A DNA stretch of 33,631 bases from a virus. The position numbers and the translations under genes are program-made. Below the pieces are notes generated by a model that saw only the letters and a list, made by a program, of their open reading frames with translations, had not been told where the DNA came from and ran no database searches. Below are positions 1 to 250 of the stretch, piece by piece; the stretch's first letter is position 1; the number at the start of each line of letters is the position of its first letter. The stretch lies in UHGV virus genome UHGV-0020097. The stretch is one strand, 5' to 3'.

Positions 1-102
1 TGCTGAAATAAACATTGTTTTTCATGGAGTAATTTGAAGCCGCACTATCACTGAAATACAGAGCTACATCATTAGCTTCGCCGTTACCAGAGTAATTGTG
101 GG

Positions 103-250
103 GTAGTGATCAATTCTGGGCGGAGTTAGTGCAGCCTGGTAGAACCAGCAAGCCTTGTGTGGCGCGGGGTGTGGTGATTTAGTGTGATTCTGGGCGGATT
201 TGTGAGAAATGACCAAAAACGCTTTTTTTTGCGCTTTTTTCTGGGCGCTT
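103..250. repeat. Direct repeats sharing core TTCTGGGCG (about 113-121, 189-197, 238-246) with phased T-tracts; candidate transposase end-binding sites of attL
   Basis: Seen in sequence: AGTGATCAATTCTGGGCGGAGTT (105-127) and AGTGTGATTCTGGGCGGATTT (181-203), third core in TTTTCTGGGCGCTTTTG. They lie downstream of the repressor 3' end, where Mu carries its L1-L3 sites. Assignment is by position only. Confidence 0.3.

Follow-up and report, generated by a model that had tools for sequence, protein, structure and literature searches.

Positions 97-279 of the window, i.e. the whole stretch of 33,631 bp that was analysed (UHGV-0020097), very probably form attL, the left end of a transposable Mu-like prophage that sits within an autotransporter gene of E. 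coli, and three direct, bipartite sites (L1-L3) in this end would be bound by the MuA-family transposase of the prophage itself. This reading is based on the host junction and the termini, on where the sites lie, how they are oriented and how well they are conserved, on their occurrence at both ends, on a 4-bp target-site duplication and on the homology of the transposase to MuA, all of which are observed in the sequences compared. Such an end is ordinary for elements of this known kind, here in an uncharacterised lineage. An earlier note on this DNA had proposed a candidate attL with transposase-binding sites, and the guess was right in essence, as the repeats lie just inside the junction, the core recurs at the other end and the layout is Mu-like; its boundary, its use of the repeat CTGAAATA and its 5-bp duplication did not stand. 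The block and its junction are as follows.

1-96: host flank, a piece of an E. coli autotransporter (outer-membrane beta-barrel) gene split by the prophage; 100% identity to that gene in many E. coli genomes
93-96: TAAT, predicted left copy of the 4-bp target-site duplication, extrapolated from nine other insertions
97-103, plus strand: left terminus of the prophage, 5'-TGTGGGG, with the cleavage dinucleotide TG at 97-98; placed by cross-locus homology start and empty-site divergence
97-279, plus strand: attL block, conserved as a unit; element positions 1-183

The junction was located with a megablast search of window positions 1-1500 against 5,426 complete E. coli genomes, 21 of which had a single match covering at least 80% of the query. 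Among the matches listed, the prophage is found at rhs, mhpT, ypdF, ycgB, a TonB-dependent receptor gene and other loci, and in nearly all of these matches query base 96 or 97 is the first to align. Bases 1-95 are common to no other copy of the prophage among the copies compared. Bases 1-96 have matches at some level in 2,035 E. coli genomes, including copies of the autotransporter gene that are 100% identical. The alignment to an empty site, proposed earlier as a check, was carried out with the uninterrupted gene of strain E2865, which reads ...CCAGAGTAAT / CACTAGGTTCC where the window reads ...CCAGAGTAAT / TGTGGGGTAG (a slash marks the junction); the empty site, ...GAGTAAT / CACTAGG, and the window, ...GAGTAAT / TGTGGGG, diverge exactly at 97. 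As homology begins at 96 or 97 in the other copies and the empty site diverges at 97, the junction lies between 96 and 97, and the prophage boundary is now fixed to the base, at 97 and not at 1. The prophage disrupts the autotransporter gene. The window thus reads 96 bp of host flank followed by TGTGGGGTAGTGATCAATTCTGGGCGGAG, which is present at the left junction in ten E. coli copies at different loci, and TGTGGGG at the junction is common to these 10 copies and to most of the related Enterobacterales prophages.

Inside this junction, three putative sites were assigned.

104-122, plus strand: L1, putative terminal transposase-binding site; TAGTG, 5 bp, core TTCTGGGCG; core at 114-122, element positions 18-26
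180-196, plus strand: L2, putative site; TAGTG, 3 bp, core TTCTGGGCG; core at 188-196, element positions 92-100
229-247, plus strand: L3, putative site; TTGCG, 5 bp, core TTCTGGGCG; core at 239-247, element positions 143-151

The core is a 9-mer with exactly three copies in the 33,631-bp window, at 114, 188 and 239 and all on the plus strand, where approximately 0.35 are expected; only 1 of 100 shuffles reached three. A repeat finder showed each copy to be followed by G/C. The 8-mer form of the core has one further copy in the window, at 16803, consistent with chance. The two direct repeats of about 20 bp noted earlier at 105-127 and 181-203 are real: both carry the noted AGTG, followed by a 2-bp indel and then ATTCTGGGCGGA, and 113-127 is 93% identical to 187-201 in an ungapped comparison. 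The third core and the T-tracts noted at 220-250 were recovered as well, the former at 239-247 and the latter as a 12-bp T-rich tandem (CGCTTTTTTTTG / CGCTTTTTTCTG) at 220-243, so that L3 overlaps this tandem and also a hairpin at 231-248. The location of the repeats, past the 3' end of the repressor gene (minus strand, 409-1056/1071), is also as described.

The consensus of a site is T-N-G-Y-G, a gap of 3-5 bp and then TTCTGGGCG. When the six sites of both ends are aligned on their cores, T-N-G-Y-G is located ten to six bases upstream of the core in five of them, and two bases nearer in L2, the half-site spacer of which is 2 bp shorter than in the other sites. This upstream element indicates that the sites are bipartite and approximately 19-20 bp long.

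The window stops within a tail-fibre gene and the right end of the prophage lies outside it, and the right-end sites (R1-R3) and the duplication were therefore read from sister copies. Both junctions of ten complete copies were retrieved and placed in prophage orientation. Nine of the ten E. coli copies end with ...GAAGTTACA, the right tip reading ...GTTACA, and their general form is host N4 / TGTGGGGTAGTG...CGCGAAGTTACA / identical N4. This means that the termini adjoining the host DNA are 5'-TG ... CA-3' (TGTGGGG... and ...GTTACA) in nine clean insertions. The tenth copy, at phnJ in F163 (L018/L019), has a right end without the terminal A and no flanking repeat; its one flank falls in phnJ and its other in an ABC ATPase gene, and a deletion beside the right end seems likely from this arrangement.

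The right-end 100 bp of the element read TGTAACTTCGCG...GCCCAGAATTGG. In the complete copy of CFS3292 (35,656 bp), TTCTGGGC is found seven times against 1.55 expected, a number reached in 0 of 100 shuffles, with three copies at each end and a single internal one. Counted from the tips, the left-end cores start at 18, 92 and 143, all direct, and the right-end cores at 18 (R1) and 40 (R2), which are direct and 22 bp apart, and at 68-75 (R3), which is inverted. The cores of L1 and R1 occupy the identical register, element positions 18-25. A search for inverted copies of the core at the right end had been suggested earlier, and they were found in the complete prophage copies, in the same register as at the left. 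The core at both tips in the same register, together with the Mu-like layout, argues for reading the repeats as transposase sites.

Just inside R3 a stretch of 150 bp in the sister copies (L003 35900-36060) matches a pin/recombinase gene region of approximately 740 E. coli genomes at 90-95%. Annotation gives it as a truncated gene next to tail-fibre assembly genes in opposed orientation, and it appears to be what is left of an invertible tail-fibre switch.

Conservation of the left end was examined among E. coli copies and among more distant relatives. Eleven E. coli copies have 7 variable positions in element positions 1-183, none of them within the 9-bp cores, versus approximately 45 distinct variable positions in element positions 184-320. 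A sharp mosaic boundary is seen at about 280 (element position 184), running to the repressor: GPEC349 and F163 are strongly diverged beyond it, while their end block is near-identical. As the transposase of GPEC349 is 99.1% identical to that of the window, these counts mean that the end block is near-invariant where the adjoining immunity region has diverged.

For the more distant relatives one genome per species was scanned, giving 40 loci with a related transposase gene, mostly at 42-62% identity, from Enterobacterales and in a few cases Vibrionaceae. The window core TTCTGGGCG was present upstream of the transposase in none of the 40, and this absence led to the search that showed that the lineages have cores of their own. 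The relatives' left ends were located by mutual blastn, and 13 left ends from five lineages were aligned. They lie approximately 1.2-1.35 kb upstream of the transposase start (L020-L042). A core is present at position 18 in 13 of 13, a second near 91 (89-93) in 11 of 13 and a third at about 131-143 likewise in 11 of 13, the latter two with at most 2 mismatches. All three cores change together, lineage by lineage:

Sodalis/Pantoea group: TTCTGGACT
Morganella: TTCTGCACT
Erwinia and Pantoea stewartii: TTYTGCACT
Pectobacterium and Yersinia: TTTTGCATA
Klebsiella and Raoultella: TTTGATAC

Such a concerted change of three separated sites is what is predicted if they are recognised by one protein encoded by the element. 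Coordinates are now available for six putative transposase sites in a Mu-like lineage that includes prophages of E. coli and of other Enterobacterales.

The terminus of the relatives is TGTGGGG, with the variants TGTTA/TGTGAAG in Klebsiella and Raoultella. In Erwinia typographi (L034) and Pantoea stewartii (L035) the left terminus is TATGGGG and not TGTGGGG; a TA terminus has been described in some Leptospira transposable prophages (PMC8705779). The metagenome-assembled genomes of symbionts, Sodalis and Candidatus Pantoea (L030, L041, L042, L049, L055), hold several copies of the element. Some of their transposase genes have early stops and some of their L2 or L3 cores are mutated (e.g. TTCTAAACT in L049), and by these marks the copies appear to be decaying. 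The spacer between L1 and L2 also holds AGCCTT and GGCGCGG (window 151-167), which are kept in most lineages even where the cores differ, and which may, judged from this alignment, be an accessory or host-factor site:

161-167, plus strand: GGCGCGG in the L1-L2 spacer, kept in most related lineages; candidate accessory or host-factor site, from the alignment of five lineages

The left end was furthermore compared with a phage collection using blastn, and nothing similar was found; only two Yersinia phages matched, and these in the ner region only.

The early genes next to the left end are those expected of a Mu-like element, with the order repressor, ner, A and B.

409-1071, minus strand: repressor with a CI-type helix-turn-helix (in relatives the annotated start is the ATG at 1056); Pfam Phage_CI_repr, PHROG 3037 transcriptional repressor
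1225-1461, plus strand: ner-like early regulator; Pfam HTH_35 (E 9e-26), PHROG 769
1461-3503, plus strand: MuA-family DDE transposase of 680 amino acids; Pfam Mu-transpos_C and HTH_Tnp_Mu_1 above cut-offs, PHROG 310 (E 2e-196)
3522-4415, plus strand: MuB-like AAA+ transposition ATPase; Pfam AAA_22 and TniB, PHROG 296 DNA transposition protein (E 2e-104)

By profile comparison the transposase is classed as a full-length but distant homologue of MuA. An hhalign comparison of a profile of 11 homologues with MuA gave a probability of 98% and an E-value of 3e-13 over residues 2-680 versus 4-663, with 22% identity. D308, D374 and E414 are invariant in the 11 homologues and fall at or near the DDE positions of MuA. 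The rve match in the transposase is below the Pfam cut-off, and a sequence search of PDB with the transposase gave only marginal matches to the MuA core and I-alpha domain. As to end binding, HTH_Tnp_Mu_1, which is of I-alpha type, is the single Pfam match, an I-gamma family being absent at E <= 0.001, and the I-beta/I-gamma end-binding region is spanned by the hhalign alignment at low confidence. Residues 76-260, the predicted end-binding region, show 32-45% identity versus 46-58% in the catalytic core and are the least conserved of the parts that contact DNA; this lower conservation fits co-evolution with the end sites.

By analogy with Mu, the transposase would be the protein that binds the L1-L3 repeats. 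Its monomers on L1-L3 and R1-R3 would pair both ends of the element, after which the transposase would nick behind the terminal CA, i.e. the complement of TG 97-98 at the left and ...GTTACA at the right, and the two free 3'-OH ends would attack the target DNA 4 bp apart.

Methylation controls end binding in IS10 and IS50. In the prophage, GATC occurs at 108-111 inside L1, between the half-sites, and again at 251-254, directly after L3, and an ORF at 13504-14244 matches in size and position a DNA-methyltransferase gene annotated in sister copies; by analogy with these insertion sequences, methylation control of end binding is conceivable here. Additionally, a separate set of repeats occupies the intergenic region between repressor and ner (window 1049-1141 and 1167-1208). 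ACTTTCTTT is found at 1055, at 1104 and, inverted, at 1125-1134, and positions 1167 and 1193 each carry a 16-bp unit resembling a palindrome, TATCCGNNGGGATAAC; operators, Ner binding sites or an enhancer of transposition are candidate functions for these repeats. A sigma-70 scan of positions 1-1300 gave no promoters, and Rfam gave only sub-threshold chance matches in the same range.

A rival reading takes the third repeat (about 220-262) chiefly as an intrinsic terminator and not as a binding site, either insulating the prophage from host read-through on the plus strand or ending the repressor transcript on the minus strand. Terminator-like matches are indeed found on both strands, and read-through transcription can interfere with assembly of the Mu transpososome (PMC3145075, a review). 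On the plus strand, the hairpin at 231-248 (-8.5 kcal/mol, z -3.3) is followed by TTTTG, but the stem forms between GCGC in the half-site and GCGC in the core, and the hairpin may thus be a by-product of the site; on the minus strand, a stem of -14.2 kcal/mol (z -3.5) has a loop of 22 nt, and its U tail is poor. Judged by eye on the unfolded sequences, the related left ends have no complementary arms here, whereas the copy of the core recurs in 11 of 13. We consider a mainly terminating function improbable, and a terminator role of L3 would be at most secondary to the binding of transposase.

The repeats might also be bound by another protein, either one of the prophage (repressor or Ner) or one of the host, e.g. 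a nucleoid protein, and serve as operators or architectural sites. They do lie downstream of the repressor gene, the host protein HU acts in the L1-L2 spacer of Mu, and the conserved GGCGCGG in the spacer suggests that further factors bind in the region. However, no copy of the core lies in the repressor-ner intergenic region, the repeats of which are separate ones, and the opposite (right) end, 35 kb distant, does carry it in equal register. The cores of GPEC349 and F163 are unchanged beside a strongly diverged region, the GPEC349 transposase being 99.1% identical, and with a host factor the lineage-specific cores among hosts of the same order would be left unexplained. Recognition by such a protein is therefore very unlikely, and we retain the transposase as the putative ligand.

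There is practically no chance that the element begins at window base 1 (5'-TG) with CTGAAATA at 3-10 and 50-57 as its outermost binding site, for which only the initial TG and the recurrence of CTGAAATA speak: bases 1-96 are identical (100%) to the chromosomal autotransporter gene in genomes without the prophage at that position, no other copy of the prophage has bases 1-95, and this boundary is refuted by the host-gene identity, the empty site and the alignment start of the other copies. The TG at base 1 is a coincidence and not a phage terminus, a caveat that the earlier note had itself made together with the possible presence of host flank, which is present as bases 1-96; the real end, at 97, starts with TG as well. 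CTGAAATA does recur and does lie at 3-10, with the second copy at 51-58 rather than 50-57, in host coding sequence: the uninterrupted host gene has both of them, and one recurrence of an 8-mer within 250 bp is at about chance level.

Target-site duplication was evaluated on the sister copies. A 4-bp direct repeat abuts TGT...ACA in nine of nine clean insertions at nine different loci (CTTC, ATTC, CATC, TTTG, TATC, GAGA, CTGA, CACT and TTTG; junctions of L001 and L003-L017), and extension to 5 bp fails in all nine, with the extra base taken from either side. For the insertion in eutC of E2348/69, the empty site rebuilt with the 4 bp present once matches eutC at 116 of 116 positions, in one ungapped piece and in more than 5,000 genomes. 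A duplication of 5 bp, as had been anticipated for this prophage, thus gives way to one of 4 bp. The duplication of Mu is 5 bp (PMC3562280), one of 6 bp has been reported for B3 and the Leptospira prophages (PMC8705779), and full-text literature searches found no report of a 4-bp duplication for a Mu-like phage. The 4-bp duplication is the single unexpected detail of an otherwise ordinary Mu-like element, and together with the lineage-specific cores at conserved positions it is the only part that a specialist might find new.

For the copy in the window, the right junction is predicted to read ...CGCGAAGTTACA / TAATCACTAGGTTCC. That junction (GAAGTTACA followed by TAATCACTAGG) had no match in IMG/VR or in the JGI metagenome contigs, and the left junction had none in IMG/VR. 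As the right junction was unmatched in the collections searched, the 4-bp duplication of this copy stays a prediction.

The chances seem evenly balanced that this enterobacterial MuA-like lineage as a whole joins its ends to the target with a 4-bp stagger, a length unrecorded for transposable phages in the literature searched (5 in Mu, 6 in B3/Leptospira), and that the family is a set of natural transposase/end pairs with fixed site positions and lineage-specific cores (TTCTGGGCG, TTCTGGACT, TTCTGCACT, TTTGATAC). If so, the series of transposases and ends could give orthogonal Mu-type transposition tools and would be a test case for transpososome geometry setting the stagger. Prophage finders seeking a 5- or 6-bp scar would miss or misplace such elements.

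For comparison the ends of Mu were read directly. CGAAA cores are located at 22, 127 and 167 at the left, all direct, and at 22 and 44 (direct, 22 bp apart) and 57-61 (inverted) at the right; the three sites per end of Mu differ in spacing and orientation (PMC3562280, a review). The prophage shares with Mu the TG...CA termini, three sites per end, terminal sites in equal register at both ends, an L1 spaced from L2/L3, abutting R1 and R2 with 22-bp phasing, an inverted R3, the gene order repressor, ner, A, B and scattered insertion sites. It differs in its core, TTCTGGGCG being unrelated to the CGAAA-type 22-mer, in core starts of 18, 92 and 143 instead of 22, 127 and 167, in a CI-type instead of a c-type repressor, in a duplication of 4 instead of 5 bp and in a transposase that is only 22% identical to MuA. 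Placed side by side with the Mu ends, the six sites share no motif with the MuA 22-bp consensus (inner half ...RCGAAAR), and this lack of resemblance counts against the transposase-site reading, as do the missing Pfam I-gamma domain and the weak hhalign alignment across that region, the shorter half-site spacer of L2 and the overlap of L3 with a terminator-like hairpin. A Mu end layout kept at 22% transposase identity, together with co-changing cores and a 4-bp duplication, is useful for comparing end recognition and target-cut spacing among MuA-type transposases.

The D3112/B3-type phages of Pseudomonas (D3112, DMS3, PaMx73, H70) have 5'-TGT ends and three putative sites of approximately 22 bp located 10, 93 and 124 bp from the left end (PMC4378225), so that both the TGT termini and the spacing of the left sites are close to those found here. 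The D3112/DMS3-type transposase is approximately 30% identical over 93% of the length, which is nearer than the raw comparison with MuA suggests. These phages differ in the host order, in the site sequences, in the 6-bp duplication reported for B3 (PMC8705779) and in which site is inverted, R1 there and R3 here.

By transposase, the closest isolated phages are Pseudomonas VW-6B and Mannheimia vB_MhM_3927AP2, with 49% and 41% identity over 99% of the length. VW-6B has the same order of C repressor, Ner and MuA, and since its record starts 53 bp outside the repressor gene, the likeness covers the genes and not the left end. In E. coli itself, Sp18 of O157:H7 Sakai resembles the present element as a Mu-like prophage with an invertible tail-fibre region, and its putative transposase sites are reported to number six (PMC2669165; PMC2628397, citing Morgan et al. 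2002). A blastn search with the transposase gene matched 63 of 5426 complete E. coli genomes, with no Sakai record in the best 40 of the 63, and on this distribution Sp18 appears to be of a different lineage from the prophage in the window.
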